The notes beneath the pieces are model-generated. The model was not told the origin of the DNA. It made no database searches and worked only from the letters and a program-made list of their open reading frames with translations. Positions 3,276 to 32,000 of a stretch of DNA of 32,000 nt are shown here, piece after piece (positions within the stretch are counted from its first letter, which is position 1; each line of letters opens with the position of its first letter). The stretch comes from Rhodobacter capsulatus SB 1003 (GTDB lineage Bacteria > Pseudomonadota > Alphaproteobacteria > Rhodobacterales > Rhodobacteraceae): the NCBI RefSeq assembly GCF_000021865.1, contig NC_014034.1, positions 2,130,001 through 2,162,000 of the forward strand, in the 5' to 3' direction. A program made the translations under genes and the position numbers.

Positions 3276-3936
3276 TCAGCCATTGCGGGCCTCCTGCTGC
3301 TGATCGACGAAGCCGCCCCATTGATCGGCGCAGGCCTCGGCGAGGCCCTGGAAGGTGCGGCTGCGGATCTTCCAGCGATCCGGCCCGGGGCTGGCGCGAT
3401 GGATCGCGGACCATTCCGCGTGGCGCTCCGGCTCTTCGGCTTTGCGCGGCGGCACCAGCCGGTTTGTCGGCACAAGCGCGGGCAACCCGCGCAGATACCA
3501 GCCGGTCGCCTTGAAGGCCGGATCGCCGAACCACCACGGCTGGACGATCTGCGGGCGCGGCAGATCCGCGGGCAGGCGCGCGCGGGCGTGTTTGTGCATC
3601 ACCGGATTCTCGATCGCCACCCGCGCGATCGGCGCCCGCCAGCAGGCCGAGAACAGCGCCGCGCCTTCGTCCAGCTCCGCCCACATCTCGGCCAGGCTGC
3701 GCCCCGGCGGCGGAACATGCAGCCAGCGCACGCCGCTGTTGCACAGCCGCGTGCAGGGCGGATGGCAGACGGCCAGAAAATCCCAGCCCTCGTCCAGATA
3801 GTCGCGCAGATCGCCGCGGATGTGCCGGTTGCTGCCGTCCTCGGCGGGCAGAAGATCCACCGACCACATGTCATGTCCGCGCGGCAAAGGCCCGGCGCAT
3901 CACGCCCGATGTCTCGCAGCCGATCAGCCCGCGCAT
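3276..3936 (-). pseudogene. Small phage cytosine-C5 methyltransferase-like gene split by a frameshift
   Basis: The piece from ATG 3936 to the stop at 3871-3873 gives MRGLIGCETSGVMRRAFAART*. The next frame continues RGHDMWSVDLLPAEDG...AVCHPPCTRLCNSG...VAIENP (PPC and ENx motifs). A 1-nt indel near 3873-3880 joins them. ATG 3936 overlaps the upstream stop (TGATG). Confidence 0.55.
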
Positions 3937-4133: not shown

Positions 4134-4339
4134 CGGCGCGCTCCGGTCTTCGGATCGGGCTGCGGGCGGGCCAGCGGCGTGATTTTCAGCGCAAGGCCGC
4201 TCAGCAGGCGGGACATGATCTGCCCCTGCAGCCAGCCGCGACCGGCGGGGCTGTGATAGTCGATCTCGCACCGGCCGGTGTCGCGGATCACTTCGTCAAG
4301 CTCTGGGTCGATGACTTCGACACGGACAGGAAAGGTCAT
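4130..4339 (-). CDS. Hypothetical phage protein
   Basis: 69-aa ORF in the operon orientation, translationally coupled to the next gene. No recognisable motif. Confidence 0.4.
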   Translation of the reverse strand: MTFPVRVEVIDPELDEVIRDTGRCEIDYHSPAGRGWLQGQIMSRLLSGLALKITPLARPQPDPKTGARR

Positions 4340-4424
4340 GGGGGGCTCGCGTGTTGGGGGCTGCGGCGCGTGGAGGGGGGATGACGCGCCGCAGCCATGC
4401 CCGTGCGGGTGGGCGCACGGGATC

Positions 4425-4718
4425 TCAGATCATGCCGAGGGCGGTTTTGTAGAGATCGAGGATCGCCTCTTCCTCGGCGACATCATTCTTGTCGCGCTTG
4501 CGCAGGGCGATGATCTTCCGGATCACCTTGGTGTCATAGCCGCGCCCCCTGGCCTCGGCCATGATGTCCTTCTGCTGCGCGGTGATGTCCTTCTTTTCGG
4601 CGTCAAGCTGCTCGTATTGTTCGATAAACTGGCGCAGCTCGTCGGCGGCGACGGCATAGGCGCGATCGCGCACCGCGCGATCGGCGGCAGTCTCTTTCAT
4701 CGGGGTCTGGTCCAGCAT
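4425..4718 (-). CDS. DUF2312 / GapR-like nucleoid-associated DNA-binding protein
   Basis: 97 aa. LRQFIEQYEQLDAEKKDITAQQKDIMAEARGRGYDTKVIRKIIALRKRD is the hallmark of the UPF0335/DUF2312 (GapR) family common in alphaproteobacteria and their phages. Confidence 0.8.
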   Translation of the reverse strand: MLDQTPMKETAADRAVRDRAYAVAADELRQFIEQYEQLDAEKKDITAQQKDIMAEARGRGYDTKVIRKIIALRKRDKNDVAEEEAILDLYKTALGMI

Positions 4719-4787
4719 CCTGTGTCCTGGAAAAAGGGCCCGGGCGCGGCGTCGCTTGAGCGCCCGGGCCAGGTGCCCGGCCGGGAG

Positions 4788-5006
4788 TCAACGGCACTCG
4801 GGATAGAGAGGCGCCGTCGCAAAGGCCGGGTGGCAGATGTGCGGTTCGAGCGCGAGGGTGAGGTTCAGCGCGGTGCGCAGGCCAAGATGGCCGAAGAGCA
4901 GCGTGGCCGCGAGGATCGCCGCATAGGCGGAAAGCGAAAGCGAGGGGTGATGCGACACGGCAAGCCCGTCGCGCAGTCGCAAAAATCTGGGTTCGTCGCG
5001 CCGCAT
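4788..5006 (-). CDS. Hypothetical small protein, first gene of the leftward early operon
   Basis: ATG 5006 is preceded by a strong AGGAGG site (ACAGGAGGCAGTGATG). 72 aa with one hydrophobic segment. Operator-like palindromes lie just upstream. Confidence 0.45.
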   Translation of the reverse strand: MRRDEPRFLRLRDGLAVSHHPSLSLSAYAAILAATLLFGHLGLRTALNLTLALEPHICHPAFATAPLYPECR

Positions 5007-5040
5007 CACTGCCTCCTGTGTGGTGGTTGGTGCGGCAATG

Positions 5041-5090
5041 TTGCGATAAGCGCAACTTATGGTCAAGCCATTAAATTGCGTTTATCGCAA
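5041..5090. promoter_or_regulatory. Two operator-like palindromes TTGCG-N5-CGCAA (OL-like)
   Basis: TTGCGATAAGCGCAA (5041-5055) and TTGCGTTTATCGCAA (5076-5090), in the AT-richer intergenic region upstream of the 5006 start. The same motif recurs at 6397-6411. Confidence 0.5.
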
Positions 5091-5216
5091 CTTTGCTTCC
5101 GCGTCGATTCGTGGAAGCTTCGACACGCGGGCTTTGAGGGCCAAAGTTCAAAGGCCCGCTTTCCAGCGGGGCCAAGGGGCGACGACGGTGAAGGCAAAGC
5201 AACTGTCGCTACTGAT

Positions 5217-5831
5217 CTAGATATAATTCCGCCAATGTTGCTCGGACACGATGCAGATGGACGCGCCTTGGGCACGCCACTCGACCGCCCGCTCAATCTT
5301 GCGTCCGAAAGAGGACTGCTTCCATGCCGCGGAGGCGTAGTCACCAATCACGAGGTAATCGGTGTTCTTGACCATGCTGCCGCAGACAGCACCGTATCGC
5401 TGAACAGCAGCTTCACATTGCTGACGGCGCCCGAAGCTGAACGTTCCCGTGAAACAGAAGCGGCGTCCATCGAAGTCGATGTTCGGCGCAGGCTCCGTGA
5501 ATGGCAGCGTGGTTGAGCGCAGAACCTCGCCAAGCTCGAAATCGTTCCCGGTCAAGGCCACGAGGGTATCCGTGAGTTCTGCGCGTTCGTCTTCATCGAC
5601 GTAGCCATCAGCGAAGATGTCGCGCATCCGTTCCAGCAAGAGCCAGATCATCGGATTGGAGTGCGTCGACGCGCTGGCGGCAAGCCAACGGTGCAGGAAC
5701 TCGATCTCATTATCCGTAAGCTCGTTATCCGCAACCAAACCGCGAGCCAAGCCAATCAGTTCGGCCACCTGTCTGTCCGCGATCTGCTGTCCGAGAAATT
5801 TCCCTTGGCGGGCCTCGTCGTCTATGCTCAT
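5217..5831 (-). CDS. TerB-like N-terminal domain / C-terminal BRCT-domain protein (cargo gene in the immunity region)
   Basis: 204 aa. N-half has TerB-like acidic helices (ADNELTDNEIEFLHRWL, DGYVDEDERAEL). C-half FDGRRFCFTGTFSFGRRQQCEAAVQRYGAVCGSMVKNTDYLVIGDYASAAWKQSSFGRKIERAVEW resembles the BRCT pattern of NAD-ligase-type BRCT domains. GC is visibly lower than in the flanks. Confidence 0.6.
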   Translation of the reverse strand: MSIDDEARQGKFLGQQIADRQVAELIGLARGLVADNELTDNEIEFLHRWLAASASTHSNPMIWLLLERMRDIFADGYVDEDERAELTDTLVALTGNDFELGEVLRSTTLPFTEPAPNIDFDGRRFCFTGTFSFGRRQQCEAAVQRYGAVCGSMVKNTDYLVIGDYASAAWKQSSFGRKIERAVEWRAQGASICIVSEQHWRNYI

Positions 5832-5979
5832 AACGCGTTGATTCCTTTATAACTAATGCCGCCCCTTATCTCTTTTTGCGGTTTGGTGGGCACCTGACCG
5901 CAAGATCTGGCGGCTTGAACGCGGACAATGTTCCCGTAAAGTTCCGCCCCTTGGAGATAGGGGGTCAGGGTGGACGCAG

Positions 5980-6326
5980 TCACTTTTCAGAAGCATGCCG
6001 AGGCGCTTTCTGCGGATCAACAGGACCTTCTTCTGGACTATCTGCTTTCGCTTTTAGGTAGAGAAGAAACTCTTCCGCCTGCTCTTGCAGCTTTGGTGGA
6101 AGATGCTCGAAGATCGCGGCAAAGGTGTCCGTCCTCGTCCGCCCCCCTTGCGCCCTGAAGAACTCCAGAACCTTCGGGATTCTCCTCGGGTTGTACCCGA
6201 CGACTGCCCGAGAGTGTCTTGGTGACCTTCTCCAGAGAAATGCCGAGAGCTTGAGCGAGTTCGGTTTTCTCGCCCCTCCGGCCTGTCAGGCGGTTGCTTG
6301 ATCCAGTTTCCGTCAATCACTTCCAT
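5980..6326 (-). pseudogene. CI/XRE-type prophage repressor interrupted by two +1 frameshifts
   Basis: Three consecutive minus-strand frames read MEVIDGNWIKQ | RLTGRRGEKTELAQALGISLEKVTKTLSGSRRVQPEE | IPKVLEFFRAQGGRTRTDTFAAIFEHLPPKLQEQAEEFLLYLKAKADSPEEGPVDPQKAPRHASEK*. Removing one nt near 6289-6296 and one near 6176-6187 gives a coherent 114-aa HTH protein (347 nt = 345 + 2). Divergent from the Cro-like gene. Confidence 0.55.
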
Positions 6327-6345
6327 GGCAGCAGCATCGCAAAAG

Positions 6346-6413
6346 CTGCGAAAATCGAAAACTGCCGAAAATCGCAAGTCTTCACTTGACCGAACATTGC
6401 GATTATCGCAATG
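6346..6413. promoter_or_regulatory. Divergent switch region with a perfect 19-bp palindrome and two degenerate copies (OR-like)
   Basis: CATTGCGATTATCGCAATG (6395-6413, core TTGCG-N5-CGCAA) plus weaker CTGCGAAAATCGAAA (6346-6360) and CTGCCGAAAATCGCAA (6362-6377). Lies between repressor start 6326 and Cro-like start 6421. Confidence 0.55.
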
Positions 6414-6420
6414 TCTCGGC

Positions 6421-6780
6421 ATGTTGAACCCTGCCAAACGAGTGATCCAGATTTGCGGCGGATACGATGCCGTCGCCGAGATGACCTGCCGCAGCGCCGC
6501 GCGGGTGCGGCGTTGGGAGTACCCCCGCGCGCGCGGCGGCACCGATGGGCTGATCCCTGCGGACTGCCAGAAGGCGCTCCTCGCCACGGCGCGGGCGCGC
6601 GGAATCGACCTGCGGCCGGAGCATTTCTTCGACTGGCCCGATGCCCCCTCGGATGCCGAGGGCGCGAGCCTTGCGTCGGGTCTTCGCACCTTGCCTGCCG
6701 TTCAAATGGCACCTGCCCTTTCGCAAAATTCCTTGACCGATACGCGTCATCCTGACGGTGCGGAAGGACGTCTCCCATGA
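6421..6780 (+). CDS. Cro/YdaS-like HTH regulator
   Basis: ATG 6421. MLNPAKRVIQICGGYDAVAEMTCRSAARVRRWEYP...GLIPADCQKALLATARARGIDLRPEHFF. First gene of the rightward operon, divergent from the repressor remnant. Confidence 0.55.
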   Translation: MLNPAKRVIQICGGYDAVAEMTCRSAARVRRWEYPRARGGTDGLIPADCQKALLATARARGIDLRPEHFFDWPDAPSDAEGASLASGLRTLPAVQMAPALSQNSLTDTRHPDGAEGRLP

Positions 6781-20115: not shown

Positions 20116-23001
20116 ATGCCCATGTCTGCCTCTGCAGTGATCGGCGCGCTGCGCGTCAATCTCGGTCTCGACAGCGCCAGTTTCCAAAAGGGCGTCGCCA
20201 GATCGACGGCCTCGCTCGGCACGCTCAAGGGCGCGGCCATGGCCGCCTCGGCCGCGGTCTCCGCCATCGGCGCGGCGATCGGCGGCCCGGCCCTGGCCGC
20301 GATCGTCACCGCGGCCGCGCGTTCCGCCCGCGAGATCACCCGCCTGTCGCAGGTCGCGGGCGCCTCGGCGCAGGAGCTGCAGCACTGGTCCTTCGGGGCG
20401 CGGACGGTGGGCATCGAACAGGAAAAGCTCGCCGATATCCTCAAGGACGTGAACGACAAGGTGGGCGATTATCTCTCCACCGGCGGCGGCGCGATGGCGG
20501 ATTTCTTCGAAAAGATCGCGCCCCGCGTCGGCGTGACCGCGCAGGCGTTTCGCGATCTTTCGGGGCCGCAGGCCTTGCAGCTTTACGTGTCGAGCCTGGA
20601 GAAAGCGGGCCTCTCGCAGGCGGAGATGACCTTCTACATGGAGGCCATCGCCAGCGATTCCACGCTGCTGCTGCCGCTTTTGCGCGCCAATGGCGCAGAA
20701 ATGGCCCGCTTGGGCGAGAGCGCCTCAAGCTTTGGCGCCGTCCTCGGGACCGATGCGATCACCGCGCTGCGCGCGGCCGAGCGGGCGCTCGACGACATTT
20801 CGGTCGTCCTTGAGGCCACACGCAACCGCATCGCCGCCGATCTCGCCCCGGCGGTCGAGGCGATGGCGCGCGCCTTCGTCAATGCCATGCGCGAGGGCGG
20901 GTTCCTGCGCGGGGTGATCGACGGGCTGATGGCGGCGCTGCCGCATCTGACCGCCTATGCCGCCGCCTTCACCGCCGGGCTGATCGCCTGGCAGGCGGCC
21001 GCGATCGCCGCGCGTCTGGCCACGATGGCGCTCTCGGTCTCCATGGCCGGGCTGCGCGCCGCGATCGCCGCCACCGGCGTCGGCGTGCTCGTCGTCGCCA
21101 TGGGCGAGCTCGGCCTCGCCATCCTCGATGCCGTGCGCAAGGCTGGGGGCTTTGCCGCCGCCTGGTACAAGCTCAAGGCGAAGTTCTTCGAGGTTCTGCG
21201 CGACATGGCCGGGGGATGGGTGGAGTTCACCTGGGCGCTTGCCGACGGCATGAATGATCTGTTCGGCACCCGGCTGATGGGCGCAGATGCGGGGATCACG
21301 CAAACCCTGCGCGACCTGCAGATCGGGGCGGAAGACGCCGCCGCGGCCGCGCAGGAGGTGGCCACGGCCGCCACCGAGGCCGAGGTCACGCTGACAGGTC
21401 TCGGAAGCGCGGGCTCCGGCGCCGGAAAGAAGCTCAAAAAGGGCCTGACCGAGGCGCAAAAGGCGGCGCAGGAGTTCGCCGATGCGCTGCGGGACGGGTT
21501 TCGGTCCTCGGTCGAGGGCGCGGTGGACTGGATGCTTGACGGGTTTCAGGGCGGCTTCAAGGGTCTGGTCAGCCTTGCCCGGGACGCGCTCAAGCAGGTC
21601 GTGGCGCTCTTTCTCAAAAACCGGATCACGCTCTCGCTCGGCCTTGGCGTCAGCGGCGGCGCCGCCACGGGGGCAGCGGCGGGCGCGGCCGTCTCCGGGG
21701 CGGCGGCGGGCGGCTTTGCGGGCCCGCTCGGCCTGCTGGGCACCGCGGGCAGCTTTCTCGGCGCGATCGGCTCGGGCGCGGCGGGGCTCGGCACCGCGCT
21801 TTTCGGGGCGGGCGGCGGCCTTGGCGCCGCGGGCACCTATCTCTCCTCGGTCGTCGGCAGCGCGACGAGCAGCCTCGGGCCGTTCGGCGCCGCCATCGGC
21901 GCGGCGCTGCCGATCCTCGCCGGGGTGGGCGTGGTCTTCTCCTTCTTCAAGAAGAAGGTCACCCAGCTTGACGCCGGGCTGCGGCTGACCGTCACCGACA
22001 TGGACACGCTGGTCGAGACCTTCAGCAAGACGAAGACCTCGCGGTTCTGGGGGCTGTCGAAGAAGACCCGCGAGACCTTCACCGAAGCCGGTGCGGCGAT
22101 TGCCGACCCGATCGAGGCCGCGGTGGCCGGGATCGTGGGCGGCGTCGCGGACATGGCCGACACCCTCGGCATCGCCGGGCGCGACGCGCTGAAAGGGTTC
22201 TCGACGCAGATCAAAATCTCCACCCACGGGCTCTCCGACAGCGAGGCGCAAGAGGCGATCCGGGCGGGGTTCACGCAGCTGTCCGACGAGCTGGCGCGGA
22301 TGATCCTGGCCGCGGGCGAAGGTGTCAGCGGCAATCTCTCCGCCTTCACCTCGGCCTTCGCGCGCCGGGGCGAGAGCGCCAGCGAGACCCTGACCCGGCT
22401 TTCCTCGGCGCTGGCCACGGCCAATGCCTGGCTCGACCGGCTCGGCAAGACCGCCTATGACACCTCGCTGGCGGGCGCCGATGCGGCCTCAAAATGGGCC
22501 GGGGCCTTCGGCGGCCTTGAGGCCATGTCCGAGGCCGTCGGCAGCTATTACGCCGGGTTCTACAGCCCCGCCGAACGCCTCGCCCAGGCGCGCGAGGAGC
22601 TCTCGCAGGCGCTGGCGGGGCTCGGCATCGACGCCCTGCCCGGCTCGCGCCAAGCCTTCCGGCAGCTGATCGACGCCGCCTTTGCCAGCGGCGACAGCGA
22701 TCTGGCCGCAAAGCTGATCCAGCTGGCCCCGGCCATGGCCGAGATCACCGATCAGGCCCAGGCGCTGACCGCGGCGCTGAAGGATCTCGACACCCAGTCG
22801 CTTTATCGCAGCGGCGCCGAGGCGCTTTATGCCGCGACCTCGGAAGGCCATCGCCGCCGCCTGACCGGCGCCGATGCCACCGTGCAGGGGCTGCTCGCCG
22901 AGGTGGTGCGCGCGATCCGCGAAGGCGACATCAACAATGCCCGCCTCACCGCCCGGCTTCTGGCCGTGCAGGAGCGCATGAGCCTGGACCCCGCGCGATG
23001 A
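20116..23001 (+). CDS. Tape measure protein
   Basis: 961 aa, A/G/L-rich with hydrophobic central stretches, downstream of the chaperone pair. ATG 20122 is an alternative start. Confidence 0.9.
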   Translation: MPMSASAVIGALRVNLGLDSASFQKGVARSTASLGTLKGAAMAASAAVSAIGAAIGGPALAAIVTAAARSAREITRLSQVAGASAQELQHWSFGARTVGIEQEKLADILKDVNDKVGDYLSTGGGAMADFFEKIAPRVGVTAQAFRDLSGPQALQLYVSSLEKAGLSQAEMTFYMEAIASDSTLLLPLLRANGAEMARLGESASSFGAVLGTDAITALRAAERALDDISVVLEATRNRIAADLAPAVEAMARAFVNAMREGGFLRGVIDGLMAALPHLTAYAAAFTAGLIAWQAAAIAARLATMALSVSMAGLRAAIAATGVGVLVVAMGELGLAILDAVRKAGGFAAAWYKLKAKFFEVLRDMAGGWVEFTWALADGMNDLFGTRLMGADAGITQTLRDLQIGAEDAAAAAQEVATAATEAEVTLTGLGSAGSGAGKKLKKGLTEAQKAAQEFADALRDGFRSSVEGAVDWMLDGFQGGFKGLVSLARDALKQVVALFLKNRITLSLGLGVSGGAATGAAAGAAVSGAAAGGFAGPLGLLGTAGSFLGAIGSGAAGLGTALFGAGGGLGAAGTYLSSVVGSATSSLGPFGAAIGAALPILAGVGVVFSFFKKKVTQLDAGLRLTVTDMDTLVETFSKTKTSRFWGLSKKTRETFTEAGAAIADPIEAAVAGIVGGVADMADTLGIAGRDALKGFSTQIKISTHGLSDSEAQEAIRAGFTQLSDELARMILAAGEGVSGNLSAFTSAFARRGESASETLTRLSSALATANAWLDRLGKTAYDTSLAGADAASKWAGAFGGLEAMSEAVGSYYAGFYSPAERLAQAREELSQALAGLGIDALPGSRQAFRQLIDAAFASGDSDLAAKLIQLAPAMAEITDQAQALTAALKDLDTQSLYRSGAEALYAATSEGHRRRLTGADATVQGLLAEVVRAIREGDINNARLTARLLAVQERMSLDPAR

Positions 23002-23936
23002 AGATCCTGACTCCGATTGCCGTCACCGATGCAACGCTCATCTCCTGCTCGATCCCCGAGACGGATTTTCCGCGCTGGAACGCGCAGACCACCTATCCCC
23101 GCGGCGCCTTCGTGATCAGCCCCGCCACCCATACCGTCTATCGCGCGCTCCAGGGCGACAACACCGGCCATGATCCCGATCTCGAACAGGCAGCGCTCGC
23201 CGATCCGCTGATCGACGACCCCGATCCGGTCTTCTGGCAGGTGATCGGCGCCACCAACCGCTGGCGGCTTTTCGACGGCAAGCCCTCGGTTCTGGCGCGT
23301 GCCGCCGAGATCATCCGCGTCACCCTCGCCCCGGGCGTGGCCGTGGGCGGCGTCGCGGGCTTTGGCATCAGCGCCGCCGAGATCCGCGTGACGATGACCG
23401 ATGCCGGGGCCGTGGTCTACCGCCGCGCGATCGCCATGCAGGACGAAACCGTCGTCAGCGACGGGCTGGGCTATTATGTCGAGCCGATCACCGAGCTCTC
23501 CGAATTCGTCCTCACCGATCTGCCGCCCTATGCCGCCGCGCAGATCACCATCGAGGCCATCCGCCGCGGCGGGCAGGTCAGCGTCGGGCAGATCGTCCTC
23601 GGCCCGGTCTGGGCGCTCGGGCGCCCGGTGATCGGCGGCACCGGGTTTCAGGGCGTCGATTTCTCCTATGTCAAACAGGACGATTACGGCGATCTGACCA
23701 CCGTGCGCCGCGCCGCCACCCGGCTCAGCACCTTCGAGACCTGCCTGCCGAACGCCCGGCTGCTCGGCTTTGACACCCGCATGCGCAGCCTGCGCGGCGG
23801 CACCGCCGCGGTCTGGATCGGCTCGGACGATCCCCGCAAGGCGGCGATCAACTACGGATTCTATCGCAGCTACCGCGCGGCCTATCAGACCGACGCCTGG
23901 TCGCTGATCTCCATCGAAGTACAAGGAATCGTCTGA
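22998..23936 (+). CDS. Tail tip/baseplate-associated protein (function not assignable)
   Basis: 312 aa, ATGA overlap with the tape measure gene. Position typical of a distal tail protein. Confidence 0.45.
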   Translation: MKILTPIAVTDATLISCSIPETDFPRWNAQTTYPRGAFVISPATHTVYRALQGDNTGHDPDLEQAALADPLIDDPDPVFWQVIGATNRWRLFDGKPSVLARAAEIIRVTLAPGVAVGGVAGFGISAAEIRVTMTDAGAVVYRRAIAMQDETVVSDGLGYYVEPITELSEFVLTDLPPYAAAQITIEAIRRGGQVSVGQIVLGPVWALGRPVIGGTGFQGVDFSYVKQDDYGDLTTVRRAATRLSTFETCLPNARLLGFDTRMRSLRGGTAAVWIGSDDPRKAAINYGFYRSYRAAYQTDAWSLISIEVQGIV

Positions 23937-24880
23937 TGGCAAAACCCGCCAAACCGACCGTCCCGCCGCCGCCGCTGCGCTCCAACCCGGAGACCTTCAG
24001 CGCGCGCATGGAGGCCTCGCTCCTGTTCTGGAAGACCTTCGCCGAGTATCTCGACGCGCTTGGCGACCATGCCGAGACCCAGGCCGATGCGGCGCTGGCC
24101 GCGGCCCTTGCGGCGGGCGCCGGGACCGGACTTGCGCTGCGGGGCAATGGCGGCAAGCTGATGGCCGTCAATGCCGGGGCAACCGCGCTGGAATTCCTGA
24201 CCGCCTCCGGCGCCGGAAAGGCGATCCTCGCCAATGCCAGCGCCGCCGGTCTGGCGCTGGCGAGCGACGCGGATGCGGCCGCGCAGCGCGCCACGCTCGG
24301 CCTTGGCACGGTCACCGCCCTGGCCGAGGCGGTGACGGATCTGAGCGCGATCACCCGCTCGGGCTGGAACCGCTTCGCCGCCGCCCAGACCGCCAACACC
24401 CCCTTTGCGACCGGCGCGGGGATGGTGCTGACGATCTTTTACGACGGCTCGGCCGCGGTCCAGCTGGTCTGGGGCCACAACAAGGGCGAGAGCGACACCG
24501 GGCAATGGATCCGCTGGCGTGCCGCCAGCACCTGGGGGGGCTGGGTGCGGCTGCATGGCTCGCAGACCGAGATCAACGGGCTGATCGGGGCGCTGGCGCT
24601 GGGGGTCGCGCAGTCCTGGCAGGATGTCACCGCCGCCCGCCTCGCCGGAACCAATTACCAGAACACCACCGGGCGCCCGATCGCGGTCAGCATCACCACA
24701 GGCGGCACGACGGCGAACACCGCGCTTTATCTGGGCGTCGCGACCCCCGCCAACATCCTGATTGCCGCAACCGGGACCGGCTCGACCCTGCGGATCATGT
24801 CGCATCAGGCCATCGTCCCCGCGGGGCATTATTACCGGTTCGAGGGCGCCGCGCCCGCAACCTGGGCGGAGCTGCGCTGA
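23936..24880 (+). CDS. Tail fibre / host-recognition protein (putative)
   Basis: 314 aa, TGATG overlap. A/G/T-rich with a beta-rich C-terminus. Position after the tail tip gene. Confidence 0.45.
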   Translation: MAKPAKPTVPPPPLRSNPETFSARMEASLLFWKTFAEYLDALGDHAETQADAALAAALAAGAGTGLALRGNGGKLMAVNAGATALEFLTASGAGKAILANASAAGLALASDADAAAQRATLGLGTVTALAEAVTDLSAITRSGWNRFAAAQTANTPFATGAGMVLTIFYDGSAAVQLVWGHNKGESDTGQWIRWRAASTWGGWVRLHGSQTEINGLIGALALGVAQSWQDVTAARLAGTNYQNTTGRPIAVSITTGGTTANTALYLGVATPANILIAATGTGSTLRIMSHQAIVPAGHYYRFEGAAPATWAELR

Positions 24881-25374
24881 TGGAACACGGCTTTTTCCAC
24901 CCCGCCCACGGCTACTGGCAGACCACCGGCACGCCCACCCCCGAGATCCGCGCCGCCTATCCCGAGGGCACGGTCGAGGTGCCGCTGCGCCCCGGGGCCG
25001 ATCATCTCTGGACCGGCGAGGGCTGGGAACCGGCCCCGGCGCGGCTCTCGGTCGATCAGGCGCTCGCCAATCTCAAGGCCGCGCGCGACGCGGCCATCGC
25101 CCGCGGCATCGAGGTCGACGGGCTGCGCCTGCAGACCGACGATCTGAGCCAGAGCCGCCTCACCGCCGCCGCCCTTGCCGCCCAGCTCGATCCGACCCTG
25201 ACCCTGCGCTGGAAGCTTGCGACCGGGGAGTTCGTCGCGCTGAGCGCGCCGCAGATCATCGCCCTCGCGCTGGCCGTGCGCGCCCATGTGCAGGCCTGTT
25301 TCGACCGCGAAGCCGATCTGGCCGCGCAGATCCGCGCCGCCGCCGACCCGGCCGCGGTCGCCCTCACCTTCTGA
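24880..25374 (+). CDS. DUF4376-like fibre-associated protein
   Basis: ATG 24880 (TGATG overlap). LKAARDAAIARGIEVDGLRLQTDDLSQSRLTAAAL...FVALSAPQIIALALAVRAHVQACFDREADL fits the DUF4376 pattern. Confidence 0.5.
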   Translation: MEHGFFHPAHGYWQTTGTPTPEIRAAYPEGTVEVPLRPGADHLWTGEGWEPAPARLSVDQALANLKAARDAAIARGIEVDGLRLQTDDLSQSRLTAAALAAQLDPTLTLRWKLATGEFVALSAPQIIALALAVRAHVQACFDREADLAAQIRAAADPAAVALTF

Positions 25375-25435
25375 TGCCCTCGGGCGCCGTCACCGTCACC
25401 GCCCGCCGGGCGGCAAGCCGCGAAAGGGCAGGATC

Positions 25436-25756
25436 ATGAGCGATGCAAGGGGCCTCGTAGAGCTCGTCGATGCCATCTGGGGCGGGGCCGTCACCACGAT
25501 GGCGGCGGCGCTCGCCGGGCGGCTGATGTGGCATTCGACCGAGGTGCGGGCGCGCAAGCGCCGCTTCCTGAGCCGCGAGCTGCTCTGGGAGCTGCCCGTC
25601 GCGGTCGGCATGGCGATCATCGGCGAGGCGGTGGCGGCTTATTTCGAGCTCGGCCGGACCGTGACCACCGGCGTCGTCGCAACGCTCGCCTATCTCGGCC
25701 CGCGCGGCGCCCAGGTGGCGCTGACCCGGGTCTTCTTTCACAACAAGGAGTCGTGA
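25436..25756 (+). CDS. Holin-like membrane protein
   Basis: ATG 25436. 106 aa with about three hydrophobic segments and a charged C-terminus, immediately upstream of the endolysin. Confidence 0.5.
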   Translation: MSDARGLVELVDAIWGGAVTTMAAALAGRLMWHSTEVRARKRRFLSRELLWELPVAVGMAIIGEAVAAYFELGRTVTTGVVATLAYLGPRGAQVALTRVFFHNKES

Positions 25757-25757
25757 G

Positions 25758-26432
25758 ATGACGACAGACTGGCGGGCCGCGCAGCTGCGGCTCCGGGCGC
25801 TCGGCTTTGAGCCGGGGCCGATCGACGGGCTTTGCGGGCCGAAGACGAAAGCCGCGATCACGGCCTTCGGGCGCAGCCGCGGGCTGTCGGCCGAGCCCGG
25901 TTTCGGGCCGGTCATCGCGGCGCTGATGGGCGCAGATGCGCCCTGCCCCGACCTTCCCTGGATGGCCGAGGCGCTGCGCCTGAAAGGCCTGCACGAGCGG
26001 CGCGACACCACGCGGCTGCGCGCCTGGCTCGATCCGGCGGCCGGGGCGATCGACCCGCGCGCCATGCCCTGGTGCGGCGCCTTCGTGGCAAGCTGCCTGC
26101 GCGCGGCGCTGCCCGGGGTGATCCTGCCCGACACCCCGCTTGCCGCCCGCGCCTGGAGCCGCTTTGGCGATCCCGTCGCGCCGGTCTTCGGCGCGGTGCT
26201 GGTCTTCTGGCGCGGCGCCCCCTCCGGCTGGCAGGGCCATGTCGGCTTTTGCCGCGGCGAGGATGCGGGGGCCTATCACGTCCTCGGCGGCAATCAATCC
26301 GATGCCGTCACCGTCACCCGGATCGCCAAGACGCGCCTGCTCGCGGCGCGCTGGCCCGCGGGCGTACCCGTCACCGGGCGGCCGGTCCGCCTCACCACCA
26401 AAGGCCTCGCCCTCTCCAGCAACGAAGCCTGA
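25758..26432 (+). CDS. Endolysin: N-terminal peptidoglycan-binding domain plus C-terminal CHAP/NlpC-like (TIGR02594-type) domain
   Basis: LRALGFEPGPIDGLCGPKTKAAITAFGRSRGL (PG_binding_1 pattern), then PWCGAFVASCL...WQGHVGF...VLGGNQSDAV (Cys/His amidase-like core). Confidence 0.8.
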   Translation: MTTDWRAAQLRLRALGFEPGPIDGLCGPKTKAAITAFGRSRGLSAEPGFGPVIAALMGADAPCPDLPWMAEALRLKGLHERRDTTRLRAWLDPAAGAIDPRAMPWCGAFVASCLRAALPGVILPDTPLAARAWSRFGDPVAPVFGAVLVFWRGAPSGWQGHVGFCRGEDAGAYHVLGGNQSDAVTVTRIAKTRLLAARWPAGVPVTGRPVRLTTKGLALSSNEA

Positions 26433-26450
26433 GCCAACACGGAGACCCCG

Positions 26451-26798
26451 ATGACCGACACCCTCCTCGCCACGATCCTCGCGCAGATCGTGCTGCCGAT
26501 CCTCGCCACGATCACCACCGCGCTGATCGGCTGGGCGGCGGCAAAACTGCGCGCCCGCTGGGGCATCGAGATCGAAGCCGCGCAGCGCGAGGCCCTGCAT
26601 CAGGCGCTGATGACCGGCGCGCAGCTCGCCCTGACCCGCCGCGGGCGCCGCGACGACGGCCGCGATCTCGACCTCCTCGCCCGGGATGCTGTCGCCTATG
26701 CCCAGACCTCGGTCCCCGATGCCATCCAGGCCCTCGCGCCACGCGACGGCGTGCTGAAAAATCTCGCCGCGGCCAAGATCGCGGCCCTGAGCCGGTGA
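26451..26798 (+). CDS. Membrane-anchored lysis-cassette protein (spanin-like?)
   Basis: 115 aa with an N-terminal TM (LLATILAQIVLPILATITTALIGWAAA) followed by a charged helical region. Position after the endolysin. Confidence 0.4.
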   Translation: MTDTLLATILAQIVLPILATITTALIGWAAAKLRARWGIEIEAAQREALHQALMTGAQLALTRRGRRDDGRDLDLLARDAVAYAQTSVPDAIQALAPRDGVLKNLAAAKIAALSR

Positions 26799-26837
26799 GA
26801 TCGCCCGCCGGGACACTTCTGTAAAGAGTGACGTTTT

Positions 26838-26874
26838 GGCCTCTTGGGAGGCCAGAGGGGGCGCCAACCCCCTC
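26838..26874 (+). terminator. Two consecutive GC hairpins after the lysis cassette
   Basis: GGCCTC-TTGG-GAGGCC (26838-26853) and GAGGGGG-CGCCAA-CCCCCTC (26855-26874). No T-tract. Confidence 0.3.
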
Positions 26875-26951
26875 CGACACGGGGACACCGCTAAGCACCC
26901 CCGTCGACCAGCCAAAGCTCATGGCCGCTCCCCCCTCGCGAGGGAGGGCCC

Positions 26952-27368
26952 TTGGAACATATTCAGATGATGGAGTCCATGATTCCCGTCGCGCCGGTGG
27001 CCCCTGCGGCACCCTGGCTCGGCGGCAAACGCAACCTGGCGAAACGGATCTGCACGATCCTCGACGAAACCCCCTGCCGGACCTATTGCGAGCCCTTCGT
27101 GGGCATGGGCGGGATCTTCCTGCGCCGCCGCGCCCGCCCGCGGGCCGAGGTGATCAATGATGCGGGCCGCGACATCGCGAACCTGTTCCGGATCCTGCAG
27201 CGGCATTATCCGCAGTTCCTCGAAATCCTGCGCTTCCAGCTGACGGTCCGCAGCGAGTTCGAGCGCCTGCTGGCGACCCGGCCGGACACCCTCACCGATC
27301 TCGAACGTCGCATCCAGGATCGGCTCCAGCGTTTCGGCGATTGCCCCATGAATTATGCGGTCCCATGA
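26952..27368 (+). pseudogene. Dam-type (D12 class) N6-adenine DNA methyltransferase, 3'-truncated
   Basis: PWLGGKRNLAKRI...YCEPFVGMGGIFL...EVINDAGRDIANLFRIL...PDTLTDLER are the N-terminal SAM-binding blocks. Similarity stops at about 27308, no DPPY catalytic motif follows, and the ORF ends inside the 17-bp duplication. Confidence 0.75.
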
Positions 27369-27628
27369 ATTATGCGGTCGGCGATCGGCGGGATCATCAA
27401 CCGCCTAGTGCCGCCCTTGCGCTTGGGAATGTCGACGCGGCGGCAGGGGCCTTGCTGCCAGCCGCCCGCGCGCAATGCCAGCGCAAGATCGCGCAGAGAT
27501 GCGGTGGCCCCTTGGGCAAAGGTGGCGATGGTGACGCCGTCACCCCCCGCCGCGCCGCCGTTTTGCTGGACCTTGAGCCATGAGGCCTGCAGGGTCTCAT
27601 ATTCCGTGGCCTTGAAAAACAGGTCCAT
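27300..27628 (-). pseudogene. Reverse transcriptase gene fragment (N-terminal ~110 codons only)
   Basis: From ATG 27628: MDLFFKATEYETLQASWLKVQQNGGAAGGDGVTIATFAQGATASLRDLALALRAGGWQQGPCRRVDIPKRKGGTRRLMIPPIADRIIHG, which covers RT domains 0-2. The frame stops in the 17-bp duplication. With one copy removed it continues AIAETLEPILDATFE and then hits the methylase gene. Confidence 0.75.
27345..27378. repeat. Perfect 17-bp tandem duplication
   Basis: CCCATGAATTATGCGGT at 27345-27361 and again at 27362-27378. Confidence 0.95.
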
Positions 27629-27731
27629 CTTGCCCCCGCCACATCTTCCGTGTCCTGCGCCCCGTTGCGCCAGACTGCCGCCGAAGTCCAGCCGGTGCAA
27701 CCTTGCTGTTGCCGCACCTCCGTTTGCATTG

Positions 27732-28039
27732 GGTTCCCGCCGTCATCTTGGCGGTGATGTGAGGCTTACCCCATACCCAAGAAAGGAACATCATGGGTTC
27801 AGTCCGCCGTCGTCTTGGCGGTGATGTGAGGCTCTCCCAGCATACCAAACCGCTGGCGACCATCAGGTTCAGTCCGCCGTCGTCTTGGCGGTGATGTGAT
27901 GCACAGGAGAGACCGATGAAAATCACGGCCTTCGGTTCAGTCCGCCGTCGTCTTGGCGGTGACGTGAGGCACCTAAACAAGAGGTTCTACGATGCCGAAA
28001 GGGGTTCAGTCCGCCGTCGTCTTGGCGGTGATGTGAGGC
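27732..28039 (-). CRISPR. CRISPR array: 5 repeats (37 nt, the leftmost degenerate) and 4 spacers (30-33 nt), type VI-A-like repeat
   Basis: Repeats GGTTCAGTCCGCCGTCGTCTTGGCGGTGATGTGAGGC at 27796-27832, 27866-27902 (27900 G>T), 27934-27970 (27963 T>C) and 28003-28039. The degenerate copy at 27732-27765 has a 3-nt deletion plus 1 substitution. Spacers: 27766-27795, 27833-27865, 27903-27933, 27971-28002. The minus-strand reading has the Cas13a handle shape. Confidence 0.95.
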
Positions 28040-28409
28040 TCAGGTCCCGCAAGCCATTGAGACGCCAAGATCTTCAAGCAGGGTTTCGGAACCCTGGACG
28101 ATCAAGGCCGTATTTTGAGACCTTTTTTGCATTTCCGCGCCGCTCCAGTGGCAATTACTCTTTCCGTGTCAGTGTATTGCGCGTTTTCTGAACCCTCCTT
28201 GCCGAATTTCCGACCCGATGCCGCTGCAGGCGGCGGGTTTCGGCAAGCCTAGGCGAAGTCCGATGCGATGGCTACAGGCTTTGTCGCGCCCCGAACGTCG
28301 AAAACCGGGCAGATGGTGCGGCAAATCGGCCCGGCCCAACGGAACTGTTGCGAATGGGCTTGACGGCTTGCATCCTTGCCTTGGTGGGTTTTGTGCTGGG
28401 GGCGCGACA
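28040..28409. promoter_or_regulatory. Putative CRISPR leader and divergent promoter region between the array and cas13a
   Basis: 370-bp non-coding spacer with an AT-richer tract (about 28100-28190). The repeat orientation and the degenerate repeat at the far end place the leader here. A TTGACG hexamer at ~28359-28364 is a candidate -35 for cas13a. Confidence 0.4.
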
Positions 28410-31400
28410 ATGCAGATTGGCAAGGTTCAAGGGCGGACGATCAGCGAATTCGGCGATCCGGCGGGGGGGCTCAAACGCAAGATCAGCACCGATGGCAAGA
28501 ACCGCAAGGAGCTGCCCGCTCATCTGTCAAGCGATCCTAAGGCGCTGATCGGGCAGTGGATTTCCGGGATCGACAAGATCTATCGCAAGCCCGACAGCCG
28601 GAAGTCGGATGGTAAAGCGATCCATAGCCCGACCCCATCCAAGATGCAGTTCGACGCGCGTGACGACCTTGGCGAGGCGTTCTGGAAGCTGGTGTCAGAG
28701 GCGGGGCTGGCGCAAGACAGCGACTACGATCAGTTCAAACGCCGACTGCACCCCTATGGTGACAAGTTCCAACCTGCCGACTCCGGCGCGAAGTTGAAAT
28801 TCGAAGCGGATCCGCCCGAGCCACAGGCGTTCCACGGGCGCTGGTATGGCGCGATGTCGAAACGCGGGAATGATGCCAAAGAGCTTGCTGCGGCGCTTTA
28901 CGAGCATCTGCATGTCGATGAAAAGCGCATTGACGGGCAACCAAAGCGGAACCCCAAGACCGACAAATTTGCGCCCGGCCTGGTGGTGGCGCGGGCATTG
29001 GGGATAGAGAGTTCGGTTCTGCCGCGCGGCATGGCGCGGCTGGCGCGGAATTGGGGCGAGGAGGAAATTCAAACCTATTTCGTGGTCGATGTAGCGGCTT
29101 CGGTGAAGGAGGTGGCGAAAGCCGCAGTGAGTGCTGCGCAAGCGTTCGACCCGCCGCGACAGGTGAGCGGACGATCCCTGTCGCCAAAGGTCGGCTTTGC
29201 CCTTGCCGAGCATCTGGAGCGCGTGACCGGATCGAAGCGCTGCTCTTTCGACCCCGCTGCGGGGCCCAGCGTGCTGGCGCTGCATGACGAGGTGAAGAAA
29301 ACCTACAAGCGCCTTTGTGCGCGCGGCAAGAATGCCGCGAGAGCGTTTCCCGCCGACAAGACGGAGCTGCTCGCCCTGATGCGGCATACGCATGAAAACC
29401 GGGTGCGCAACCAGATGGTCCGGATGGGGCGTGTGTCCGAATATCGGGGACAGCAAGCGGGCGATCTTGCGCAGAGCCATTACTGGACCTCGGCCGGACA
29501 GACCGAAATCAAGGAATCCGAGATCTTTGTTCGGCTGTGGGTGGGGGCCTTTGCGCTGGCCGGGCGGTCGATGAAGGCCTGGATCGACCCGATGGGCAAG
29601 ATCGTCAATACCGAGAAAAATGACCGTGATCTGACCGCCGCGGTCAATATTCGGCAGGTGATCTCGAACAAGGAGATGGTCGCCGAGGCGATGGCGCGGC
29701 GTGGCATCTATTTCGGGGAAACGCCCGAACTGGACCGACTGGGTGCCGAAGGGAACGAGGGCTTTGTCTTCGCGCTGTTGCGCTATCTGCGCGGTTGCCG
29801 GAACCAGACCTTTCACCTTGGTGCCCGGGCTGGTTTTCTCAAGGAAATCCGAAAAGAACTGGAAAAGACCCGGTGGGGAAAGGCGAAGGAGGCAGAGCAT
29901 GTCGTCCTGACGGACAAGACAGTCGCCGCGATCCGCGCCATCATCGACAATGATGCAAAGGCGTTGGGGGCGCGCCTGCTTGCCGATCTGTCCGGTGCTT
30001 TCGTGGCGCATTATGCATCGAAAGAGCATTTCTCGACACTTTATTCCGAGATCGTCAAAGCGGTGAAGGATGCGCCCGAAGTCTCCTCCGGGCTGCCGCG
30101 GCTCAAGCTATTGCTGAAGCGGGCAGATGGTGTGCGCGGTTATGTGCATGGCCTGAGAGACACACGCAAACATGCATTTGCCACCAAGCTGCCCCCGCCC
30201 CCCGCCCCTCGAGAACTTGACGATCCCGCGACGAAGGCGCGTTACATCGCCCTGTTGCGGCTTTACGACGGGCCATTCCGCGCCTACGCTTCTGGCATTA
30301 CCGGAACGGCGCTTGCCGGACCTGCCGCGCGCGCCAAGGAAGCGGCAACCGCGCTGGCGCAAAGCGTGAACGTCACGAAGGCGTATTCCGACGTAATGGA
30401 AGGGCGCACGAGCCGGTTGCGCCCCCCGAACGATGGCGAAACGCTGCGCGAATATCTCAGCGCCTTGACCGGCGAAACCGCGACCGAGTTCCGGGTGCAG
30501 ATCGGGTACGAGTCCGACTCGGAAAACGCCCGCAAACAGGCGGAATTCATCGAGAACTATCGCCGCGACATGCTTGCCTTCATGTTCGAGGATTACATCA
30601 GGGCCAAGGGCTTTGACTGGATATTGAAGATCGAGCCGGGCGCGACGGCGATGACCCGCGCGCCCGTCCTGCCCGAGCCGATCGATACGCGGGGCCAATA
30701 CGAGCATTGGCAAGCGGCGCTCTATCTGGTGATGCATTTCGTTCCGGCCAGCGATGTCTCGAACCTGCTGCACCAGTTGCGCAAATGGGAGGCGCTTCAG
30801 GGCAAATATGAACTGGTCCAGGACGGTGACGCCACGGATCAGGCGGACGCGAGGCGCGAGGCGCTTGATCTCGTCAAGCGCTTCCGCGATGTGCTGGTGT
30901 TGTTCCTCAAGACCGGCGAGGCCCGGTTCGAGGGCCGCGCAGCGCCTTTCGATCTGAAGCCGTTTCGGGCGCTCTTTGCCAACCCGGCCACCTTTGACCG
31001 GCTCTTCATGGCCACACCCACAACCGCGCGCCCTGCCGAAGATGACCCCGAGGGGGACGGTGCGTCCGAGCCGGAACTGCGTGTCGCGCGCACCTTGCGC
31101 GGTTTGCGCCAGATCGCGCGCTACAACCATATGGCGGTTCTGAGCGATCTTTTCGCAAAGCACAAAGTGCGGGACGAAGAGGTGGCCCGCTTGGCCGAGA
31201 TCGAAGACGAGACGCAGGAAAAGTCACAGATCGTGGCAGCCCAGGAACTGCGCACCGACCTGCACGACAAGGTGATGAAGTGTCACCCAAAAACGATTTC
31301 CCCCGAGGAGCGGCAAAGTTACGCTGCGGCGATCAAGACCATCGAGGAACACCGGTTTCTGGTCGGACGGGTCTATCTGGGTGATCATCTGCGCCTGCAC

Positions 31401-32000
31401 CGGTTGATGATGGACGTGATCGGACGCCTGATCGACTATGCCGGGGCTTATGAACGTGACACCGGAACTTTCCTCATAAACGCGAGCAAGCAGTTGGGAG
31501 CAGGCGCCGATTGGGCTGTCACCATCGCAGGGGCAGCCAATACCGACGCGCGCACCCAAACCCGCAAAGACCTTGCGCATTTCAATGTGCTTGACCGCGC
31601 GGATGGCACGCCAGACCTGACCGCTCTGGTCAACCGGGCGCGCGAGATGATGGCCTATGACCGCAAGCGCAAGAATGCGGTGCCGCGCTCGATCCTCGAT
31701 ATGCTGGCACGACTTGGGCTGACGCTGAAATGGCAGATGAAAGATCACCTTCTGCAAGACGCGACGATCACTCAGGCCGCCATCAAGCACCTCGACAAGG
31801 TCAGGCTGACAGTTGGCGGGCCGGCGGCGGTGACAGAGGCCCGTTTCAGCCAAGACTACCTCCAGATGGTGGCGGCCGTCTTCAATGGCAGCGTCCAGAA
31901 TCCAAAGCCACGCCGCCGGGATGACGGGGACGCATGGCACAAGCCCCCCAAACCCGCGACCGCGCAAAGCCAGCCAGATCAAAAACCGCCCAACAAGGCA
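28410..32000 (+). CDS. cas13a: Cas13a (C2c2)-like type VI-A CRISPR effector, RNA-guided RNase. 3' end lies beyond the window
   Basis: Frame is open for 1197 codons from ATG 28410 (after a GGGGG run) to the last base of the window. Two HEPN R-x4-H motifs lie at codons 464-469 and 1052-1057. Adjacent to the CRISPR array. Not in the ORF track because there is no stop in the window; the three long minus-strand ORFs here are its shadows. Confidence 0.93.
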   Translation, partial: MQIGKVQGRTISEFGDPAGGLKRKISTDGKNRKELPAHLSSDPKALIGQWISGIDKIYRKPDSRKSDGKAIHSPTPSKMQFDARDDLGEAFWKLVSEAGLAQDSDYDQFKRRLHPYGDKFQPADSGAKLKFEADPPEPQAFHGRWYGAMSKRGNDAKELAAALYEHLHVDEKRIDGQPKRNPKTDKFAPGLVVARALGIESSVLPRGMARLARNWGEEEIQTYFVVDVAASVKEVAKAAVSAAQAFDPPRQVSGRSLSPKVGFALAEHLERVTGSKRCSFDPAAGPSVLALHDEVKKTYKRLCARGKNAARAFPADKTELLALMRHTHENRVRNQMVRMGRVSEYRGQQAGDLAQSHYWTSAGQTEIKESEIFVRLWVGAFALAGRSMKAWIDPMGKIVNTEKNDRDLTAAVNIRQVISNKEMVAEAMARRGIYFGETPELDRLGAEGNEGFVFALLRYLRGCRNQTFHLGARAGFLKEIRKELEKTRWGKAKEAEHVVLTDKTVAAIRAIIDNDAKALGARLLADLSGAFVAHYASKEHFSTLYSEIVKAVKDAPEVSSGLPRLKLLLKRADGVRGYVHGLRDTRKHAFATKLPPPPAPRELDDPATKARYIALLRLYDGPFRAYASGITGTALAGPAARAKEAATALAQSVNVTKAYSDVMEGRTSRLRPPNDGETLREYLSALTGETATEFRVQIGYESDSENARKQAEFIENYRRDMLAFMFEDYIRAKGFDWILKIEPGATAMTRAPVLPEPIDTRGQYEHWQAALYLVMHFVPASDVSNLLHQLRKWEALQGKYELVQDGDATDQADARREALDLVKRFRDVLVLFLKTGEARFEGRAAPFDLKPFRALFANPATFDRLFMATPTTARPAEDDPEGDGASEPELRVARTLRGLRQIARYNHMAVLSDLFAKHKVRDEEVARLAEIEDETQEKSQIVAAQELRTDLHDKVMKCHPKTISPEERQSYAAAIKTIEEHRFLVGRVYLGDHLRLHRLMMDVIGRLIDYAGAYERDTGTFLINASKQLGAGADWAVTIAGAANTDARTQTRKDLAHFNVLDRADGTPDLTALVNRAREMMAYDRKRKNAVPRSILDMLARLGLTLKWQMKDHLLQDATITQAAIKHLDKVRLTVGGPAAVTEARFSQDYLQMVAAVFNGSVQNPKPRRRDDGDAWHKPPKPATAQSQPDQKPPNKA
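29799..29816 (+). other. HEPN-1 catalytic motif RNQTFH (codons 464-469)
   Basis: Context ALLRYLRGCRNQTFHLGARAG. R-N-x3-H is the canonical HEPN RNase motif. Confidence 0.85.
31563..31580 (+). other. HEPN-2 catalytic motif RKDLAH (codons 1052-1057)
   Basis: Context DARTQTRKDLAHFNVLDRA. Second R-x4-H motif, about 590 residues after the first. Confidence 0.85.

Follow-up and report, generated by a model that had tools for sequence, protein, structure and literature searches.

A truncated reverse transcriptase gene behind the Cas13a array of Rhodobacter capsulatus, very probably the remnant of an RT-Cas1 adaptation module

The stretch of DNA considered here (the window, 32,000 nucleotides of Rhodobacter capsulatus SB 1003, contig NC_014034.1, positions 2,130,001 to 2,162,000) carries most of the gene for Cas13a, a structurally and physiologically studied effector of type VI-A, and the associated CRISPR array. 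Directly behind the array lies an open reading frame encoding the beginning of a reverse transcriptase (RT), and the frame stops short. Very probably it is the 5' remnant of an RT-Cas1 gene, which together with cas2 made up the adaptation module of a VI-A/RT1 system in an ancestor of R. capsulatus. The system is of a known kind, type VI-A/RT1, and the locus is a decayed member of it that had gone unrecognised. Its parts, in coordinates of the window, are as follows.

About 3000-26800, plus strand: prophage (CII-like regulator, HNH, TerS, TerL, head, tail and lysis genes).
26952-27307, plus strand: truncated prophage dam, 119 codons (Pfam PF02086, D12-class).
27300-27307: putative deletion junction between dam and RT, where the two homologies overlap.
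27300-27628, minus strand: probable 5' stump of an RT-Cas1 pseudogene, with RT motifs 0-2 (by translation, PADLOC and homology).
27345-27378: 17-bp tandem duplication within the RT stump (repeat family D4, 100% identity).
27629-27728, minus strand: gap of 100 nt from the degenerate last repeat to the RT start codon.
27729-28039, minus strand: CRISPR array of type VI-A: four intact repeats of 37 nt, four spacers and a degenerate fifth repeat.
28040-28409: divergent intergenic region between the leader side of the array and cas13a (by position).
28410-32000, plus strand: cas13a, running past the end of the window; full protein 1285 amino acids (by identity with P0263 and Pfam Cas13a families).

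Read on the minus strand from ATG 27628, the stump is MDLFFKATEYETLQASWLKVQQNGGAAGGDGVTIATF...RRVDIPKRKGGTRRLMIPPIADRIIHG. It carries two lesions. The first is a perfect tandem duplication of 17 bp, with units CCCATGAATTATGCGGT at 27345-27361 and again at 27362-27378, which shifts the frame and brings in a stop at 27353-27355. The frame as found therefore has only 91 amino acids (27628-27353; protein P0001). This protein is unchanged in more than 100 assemblies, and the duplication is seen in all contigs with exact P0001. Once one copy is taken out, the frame becomes ...ADRIIHGAIAETLEPILDATFE and continues to ...LEPILDATFE, about 104 codons in all. The last residue with homology to RT is E104 (nucleotide 27300), and nothing after it in the stump is similar to RT motifs 3-7 or to YxDD. 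Relatives of the stump have the catalytic sequence FADDF; since the stump stops before motif 3, the (Y/F)ADD of motif 5 is absent. In place of the rest of an RT, the DNA downstream carries a truncated phage dam gene in antisense, a feature beyond those recognised in the first-pass annotation of this DNA. One peptide past this junction, GVRPGRQQAL, had been tried as RT motif 2a (RPGRS) and was rejected: it results from reading dam codons (EFERLLATRPD) in antisense, codons that are 92-96% DNA-identical to those of intact prophage dam genes, and its register differs from that of the RT alignment.

The missing parts were sought by tblastn. With three full-length RT-Cas1 proteins and one Cas1 as queries, no Cas1 domain was found behind the stump in the window or in contigs L002-L005, and in the same sequences Cas2 gave no match at E < 1. 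Neither the window nor the adjoining 10 kb on its right contains a 3' part of the RT, a cas1 or a cas2. The first-pass annotation had described a minus-strand frame starting at this ATG about 100 bp beyond the terminal repeat, encoding RT domains 0-2 once a duplication copy is removed, ending abruptly with no domains 3-7 or YxDD, and with no cas1 or cas2 in view. All of this stands, with the corrected frame reading as it was given, the gap made exact at 100 nt and the end placed at E104.

The second lesion is the junction with dam. RT homology extends down to 27300 and prophage identity up to 27307, so eight bases, CTCGAACG, fit both parents: as L-E-R(CG) in dam on the plus strand and as T-F-E in the RT on the minus strand. 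The position is fixed on the phage side by three prophages in IMG/VR (L130, L124 and L123) that are 92-96% DNA-identical to 24000-27311 of the window. Base-by-base identity with them ends after ...GATCTCGAACG (27307); past this point intact dam reads CGCGGCGCGGTTCCTC (ERAARFLY), and the window reads TCGCATCCAGGATCGG, the antisense of RT codons. In all three prophages the intact dam encodes 274 amino acids (7974-8798 in L130). The version in the window matches only positions 1-72 of the 253 in the PF02086 profile and is 64% identical to residues 10-116 of the 278-amino-acid Dam of phage phi2LM21. Homology stops at residue 119 (...TLTDLER) against that protein and in all 11 phage matches listed, at identities of at least 42%, and the open frame of dam then continues into RT-derived DNA as far as a stop at 27368. 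Similarity to the three prophages is lost 20-45 nt past their dam stop, which makes dam the last conserved gene of the prophage. Beyond dam the three differ from the window and from each other, so that the prophage family occurs in several contexts.

The junction allows microhomology of up to 8 nt, and the eight shared bases suggest a deletion at such a short match. The ancestral locus would have had cas13a in one direction and leader, array, RT-Cas1 and cas2 in the other. The neighbouring prophage has dam at its right end, and one deletion may then have joined codon 119 of this gene, tail to tail, to codon 104 of RT-Cas1, within the short stretch possibly common to RT and dam. Of RT-Cas1 it would have taken motifs 3-7 of the RT and the entire Cas1 domain, at least about 1.7 kb, and with them cas2 (at least about 0.3 kb), the 3' half of dam (at least about 0.47 kb) and any DNA in between. 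The 17-bp duplication additionally breaks what remains of the RT frame.

The same RT-Cas1 remnant might instead owe its end to an insertion, either of the prophage or of an island carrying Cas13a. The prophage does directly adjoin the break, and the region from tRNA-Leu to the P4-type integrase resembles integrated DNA. After an insertion, however, the far end of the element should still have cas2 and the remaining 3' portion of RT-Cas1, and neither is present in 1-27300 or in the 10 kb beyond cas13a. An insertion would also have to explain why dam is cut at codon 119 of 274 when it is intact in close relatives of the prophage. A dam truncated at the junction and intact in relatives means that DNA has been lost on both sides, and the absence of RT-Cas1, Cas1 and Cas2 from the rest of the window and from the 10 kb beyond cas13a argues against insertion and for two-sided loss. 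Insertion thus seems very unlikely. A narrower form of the idea, in which a Mu-like phage (RcapMu) split the gene by random insertion, was dropped in view of the HNH-TerS-TerL module, the tRNA attachment site and the truncated dam.

The class of RT to which the gene belonged has to be judged from about 104 residues. The cas-type 'RT' model of PADLOC matches the stump with E = 1.2e-23, and the NCBIfam model for group II intron RT/maturases, TIGR04416, matches residues 11-104 with E = 2.9e-23. The RT-Cas1 model of PADLOC, Cas1_IIIb, follows at 6e-11, then weak matches to UG/DRT models (UG19 the best, at 7.5e-6, with UG21, UG13a and UG17 as well); no retron model in PADLOC matches at E <= 10. Taken by themselves, the model libraries do not choose a class.

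Searches for relatives go somewhat further. Queried with the stump, a word-indexed search of proteins retrieved the stump and a single relative, so that an exhaustive search was needed. HMMER was run over 1.84 billion representatives with a profile (A1) made from P0001 and P0002, a related stump described below, at E <= 0.001. It matched 12,604 library proteins, many of the best matches being 650-690 amino acids long. Among the 70 matches of at least 400 amino acids, a Cas_Cas1 domain was found in 56 and the group II maturase domain, GIIM, in 2. (The stump lacks GIIM as well, but its gene ends before the position of that domain.) In blastp with the stump alone the top match was P0003 (146 bits, 65% identity over 104 amino acids), and the best Cas1-containing protein scored 110 bits. 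Every protein at ranks 2-21 is either an RT-Cas1 protein or a short fragment that its domains do not classify, and none has GIIM; the first GIIM protein appears at rank 22 (97 bits, 50% identity). The signal in the stump thus points to RT-Cas1 over group II RTs, by a small margin. With the stump as query, a scan of representative genome contigs gave no match, and a scan of metagenomes gave only RT-only relatives at 44% identity, which are probably introns.

CRISPR-associated RTs are generally held to derive from group II intron RTs, whose motifs 0-2 are 43-50% identical to the stump. One might suppose that a piece of a group II intron RT/maturase landed by chance beside the array, and that the stump is this piece. 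TIGR04416 matches it as strongly as does the cas-type model, GIIM-bearing group II RTs reach 97 bits, and the type VI locus of Lachnospiraceae MA2020 is reported to have an RT of a group II intron as its neighbour (Toro et al. 2019, PMC6753606). However, blastp ranks 2-21 and the long HMMER matches are nearly or wholly free of GIIM. The reading frame of such an intron, moreover, sits in domain IV and needs a ribozyme of several hundred nucleotides upstream; upstream of the stump there are only 100 nt before the CRISPR array (the downstream side is deleted), and at the Rfam gathering threshold no intron family was found anywhere in the window, where only tRNA matched. What remains is an RT fragment behind a CRISPR array, with no intron RNA found beside it. 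Since the score gap to group II RTs is small, the decisive evidence is synteny and not clustering alone: in four independent related loci the homologue of the stump is an RT-Cas1 gene in the same position, behind repeats of the same family. We regard a stray intron fragment as highly improbable.

The four loci deserve description. In L037 the array is followed, after 141 nt, by P0003, the closest relative of the stump; the last repeat of this array, like that of the window, is degenerate. L036 has the closest Cas13a relative found (38% identity), a six-repeat array and, after 13 nt, P0007, the N-terminus of an RT fused in frame to the C-terminus of Cas2. L009 has cas13a, a 13-repeat array, an RT (282 amino acids) with Cas1 (348 amino acids), and a second array. 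The fourth is L039, an intact IMG/VR locus collinear with the window: divergent cas13a, about 330 bp, six repeats, 76 nt, an RT-Cas1 of 656 amino acids (RVT_1 and Cas_Cas1) and cas2. A further locus, L001, has the RT stump P0002 (50% identical to that of the window), then the C-terminal half of Cas1, then Cas2. Cas2 thus occurs in L001 and L039, and as the fused tail in L036; by analogy, cas2 would have stood at the R. capsulatus locus as well.

The repeats tie these loci to the window. In the window the four intact repeats (minus strand, 28039-28003, 27970-27934, 27902-27866 and 27832-27796) are 37 nt long, GCCTCACATCACCGCCAAGACGACGGCGGACTGAACC, and fold with a 5-bp stem, an 8-nt loop and an AC bulge; the fifth, 27765-27729, is degenerate at its 3' side. 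The repeat of L037, GAAATACATGACCGCCAAAATGACGGCGGACTACACC, clearly belongs to one family with it. The 5-bp stem and 8-nt loop are common to the repeats of all five loci, with compensatory changes in the stem, and the published VI-A/RT1 repeats have just such a fold (37 nt, 5-bp stem, 8-nt loop, AC or CC bulge; PMC6753606).

Two of the related modules show internal deletions of their own. In L001 (235-1498) an RT stump of 111 amino acids is joined to the C-terminal half of Cas1, with Cas2 beyond, and in L036 (4555-5181) 165 amino acids of RT are fused in frame to the last ~45 of Cas2. Decay of the adaptation module by internal deletion seems to be recurrent in this RT lineage.

With these loci in hand, the proposals made in the first-pass annotation can be judged: that the stump is what remains of an RT or RT-Cas1 spacer-acquisition module destroyed by rearrangement, that such modules accompany some type VI-A loci, and that the gap to the array is too small for intron domains I-III or for a retron msr/msd. 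The first draws support from the RT-Cas1 neighbours and from synteny, the second is in print for Alphaproteobacteria (PMC6753606), and the third agrees with the 100 nt measured and with the lack of any Rfam intron or retron RNA in the window. It had also been proposed to classify the RT and to compare syntenic loci; the nearest classifiable relatives are RT-Cas1 fusions, with no firm clustering among retron, Abi or group II RTs, and L037, L036, L009 and L039 have a homologous gene, not an unrelated RT element, behind a like array.

The same evidence practically disposes of the idea that the stump is a prophage-borne, stand-alone defence RT (retron, Abi or UG/DRT) unrelated to CRISPR: the stump does adjoin prophage DNA, P0001 bears the JGI product name 'retron-type reverse transcriptase' and the weak UG matches exist, but these lie ~17 orders of magnitude below the cas-type RT, no retron model matches, the related prophages end 20-45 nt past dam with no RT there, the homologous RTs are located behind Cas13a arrays, and the space upstream is too small for msr/msd.

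Several considerations weigh against deriving the stump from an RT-Cas1 gene. Scores of 110 and 97 bits over 104 residues are close, and sequence alone would not settle the class; the assignment rests on scores and synteny. With identities of 38%, 25% and 23%, the nearest Cas13a relatives are remote, and what the synteny compares is related systems, not strains. An intact allele of more than 65% identity was found in no collection searched, and the content and size of the deletion are accordingly those that the related loci would predict. 

A word-indexed search for Cas13a found only R. capsulatus and one relative (the 38% one), and none was found in the collection of viral contigs. A degenerate-repeat scan of representative genome contigs found one true array and 23 chance matches. 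The true array, L013 (Kiloniellaceae), accompanies a cas13a and has 26 repeats, with no RT-Cas1. The scan did not recover R. capsulatus, whose representative genome in the scanned collection apparently lacks the locus.

The class to which the R. capsulatus locus is assigned, VI-A/RT1, was defined in Rhodovulum and Rhizobium, both Alphaproteobacteria (PMC6753606), and has also been treated by Gonzalez-Delgado et al. 2024 (PMC11662929); its RTs belong to clade 7 in the reference phylogeny of Toro et al. The window shares with it an alphaproteobacterial Cas13a and the 37-nt repeat fold. RT-Cas1 directly behind the array is the arrangement of L037, L036, L009 and L039, and is the position of the stump in the window; the divergent layout of L039 is also that of the window. 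What sets the window apart is that it keeps only 104 codons of RT-Cas1, frameshifted, with no catalytic RT motifs, no Cas1 and no cas2. The Cas13a proteins compared with that of the window are distant, at 23-38% identity; published proteins of the class are WP_080615428.1 and WP_108028906.1.

The process has parallels elsewhere. The RT2 systems of E. rectale and Drancourtella have undergone the same one, with a frameshifted RT, or with RT-Cas1 or the module lost, while cas13a and the array were kept. They differ in belonging to another Cas13a clade (Clostridia) and another RT clade and in having a shorter repeat, and the loss in the window, by contrast, is a deletion fused to a prophage gene. 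RT-Cas1 proteins of type III systems (Marinomonas mediterranea MMB-1, and here L010 and L011) have a homologous RT N-terminus, and the ancestor of the stump would have had the same fusion; theirs is linked to multi-subunit Cmr/Csm effectors, often with Cas6, whereas the stump is linked to Cas13a. That the same RT group is found in type III loci with Cas6 (L010 and L011) agrees with the published view that type VI-A captured its module from type III.

The literature on clade 1 gives its systems as with or without the module, and none as the carrier of a relic. In the supplement to PMC6753606 the fields for RT-Cas1, Cas1 and Cas2 are empty for R. capsulatus NZ_AYQC01000019.1 (the L004 contig). 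Kretz et al. 2024 (PMC11089165, Figure 1) drew a "cas1 (negative strand)" preceded by a four-spacer array. By its position this "cas1" is the RT stump, and it contains no Cas1 sequence.

On the effector side the R. capsulatus locus is in order. The product of cas13a is 100% identical to P0263, the Cas13a of Rhodobacter capsulatus, the species to which NCBI also assigns P0001, and 27001-32000 of the window is 99.9% identical to R. capsulatus chromosomes. To the right of the window come the remainder of cas13a, a second small array, a gene for a 516-amino-acid protein, a P4-type integrase and tig. Promoter activity has been reported from the intergenic region 28040-28409, both for the array and for cas13a (PMC11089165). 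A consensus scan of that region found no sigma-70 match, and a promoter and terminator scan around the RT stump was uninformative.

The four spacers are the same in the window strain and in L002-L004, except for a variant of the second; the sampled strains are close relatives. The shared set agrees with an array that is frozen. Spacer 2 (27903-27933) is GAAGGCCGTGATTTT in the window and GAAGCCGTTGATTTT in L002-L004 (9696-9726), the other three being identical. The difference could be explained by a paired deletion and insertion of 1 nt, and it keeps the reading frame in the target sense (MKITAF against MKINGF). No protospacer for spacer 2 was found in the phage collection, and no target for any spacer was found in the window or its flanks.

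A separate observation concerns what the spacers resemble. Three of the four in the window (27766-28002, minus strand) are antisense to a Shine-Dalgarno-like (SD) element followed by ATG; the target of spacer 2, for example, reads ACAGGAGAGACCG-ATG-AAAATC. Taking RT-linked arrays together (those of the window, L009 9150-12900, L036 4150-4540 and L039 7520-7920), a strict SD+ATG motif occurs in the target sense in 9 of 35 unique spacers and in the opposite sense in 2. Shuffling gives an expectation of 1.2 where 9 were observed, a count that none of 5000 shuffles attained. The sample is small, however, and the data were already in view when the motif was defined; in loci examined after its definition 3 of 13 spacers fit, a number reached by 152 of 5000 shuffles. 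In the RT-less array L013 none of 25 spacers fits. If the pattern is true, then perhaps RT-Cas1 captures the 5' ends of mRNA, or perhaps Cas13a immunity selects spacers at ribosome-binding sites. Neither has been reported in the literature on RT-Cas1 and type VI examined, where the antisense pattern itself finds no mention.

The boundaries of the region invite a second speculation. A tRNA-Leu(CAA) gene lies at 2821-2904, and its last 14 nt (2891-2904), GACCACCCGCACCA, are found again about 33 kb away, as a direct repeat in the 387 bp that separate the integrase from tig (1775-1788 in L002, equivalent to about 35841-35854 in window coordinates). Between the two copies lie the prophage, the junction of dam with RT, both arrays and cas13a. 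The proposed element would thus contain, besides the Cas13a locus, a nearly complete prophage and the single P4-type integrase; the prophage part yielded no second integrase. Prophage and Cas13a locus may thus belong to a single integrated element or stand in tandem. That the locus with its relic is cargo of a ~33-kb tRNA-Leu(CAA) element and also that spacers linked to RT-Cas1 are preferentially antisense to SD+ATG is, as a joint claim, unlikely.

As to the prophage itself, the one match to phages that megablast gave for 22000-28100 was a holin segment of RcapNL, 289 nt long, so it is not a known Rhodobacter phage. Next to the tRNA-Leu end of the proposed element, a frame of 203 amino acids (3276-3887, minus strand) matches the DNA methyltransferase family PHROG 757 (1.7e-47) and no Pfam family; it is a second methyltransferase besides the dam truncated at the opposite end. 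The G+C content is 56-61% in 4500-6500, as against about 70% in the remaining prophage. The frames 4278-5516 and 6054-6689 have no Pfam or PHROG match, and 5217-5831 matches PHROG 3989, with a weak BRCT similarity.

The derivation of the stump from an RT-Cas1 gene changes how the R. capsulatus system is to be placed: it would be an RT1 lineage that lost its adaptation module, not one that never had it, and as such a concrete case, in clade 1 (Alphaproteobacteria), of the frequent gain and loss that has been published. The effector side of RcCas13a is functional (PMC8776769, PMC11089165), so CRISPR RNA can still be produced and used, but the addition of spacers by the system's own module would no longer be possible and the array would be frozen. 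In work with the native array, then, spacer acquisition through its own module is not to be expected. For restoring adaptation in trans, a related RT-Cas1 and Cas2, such as those of Rhodovulum kholense, are the obvious candidate.

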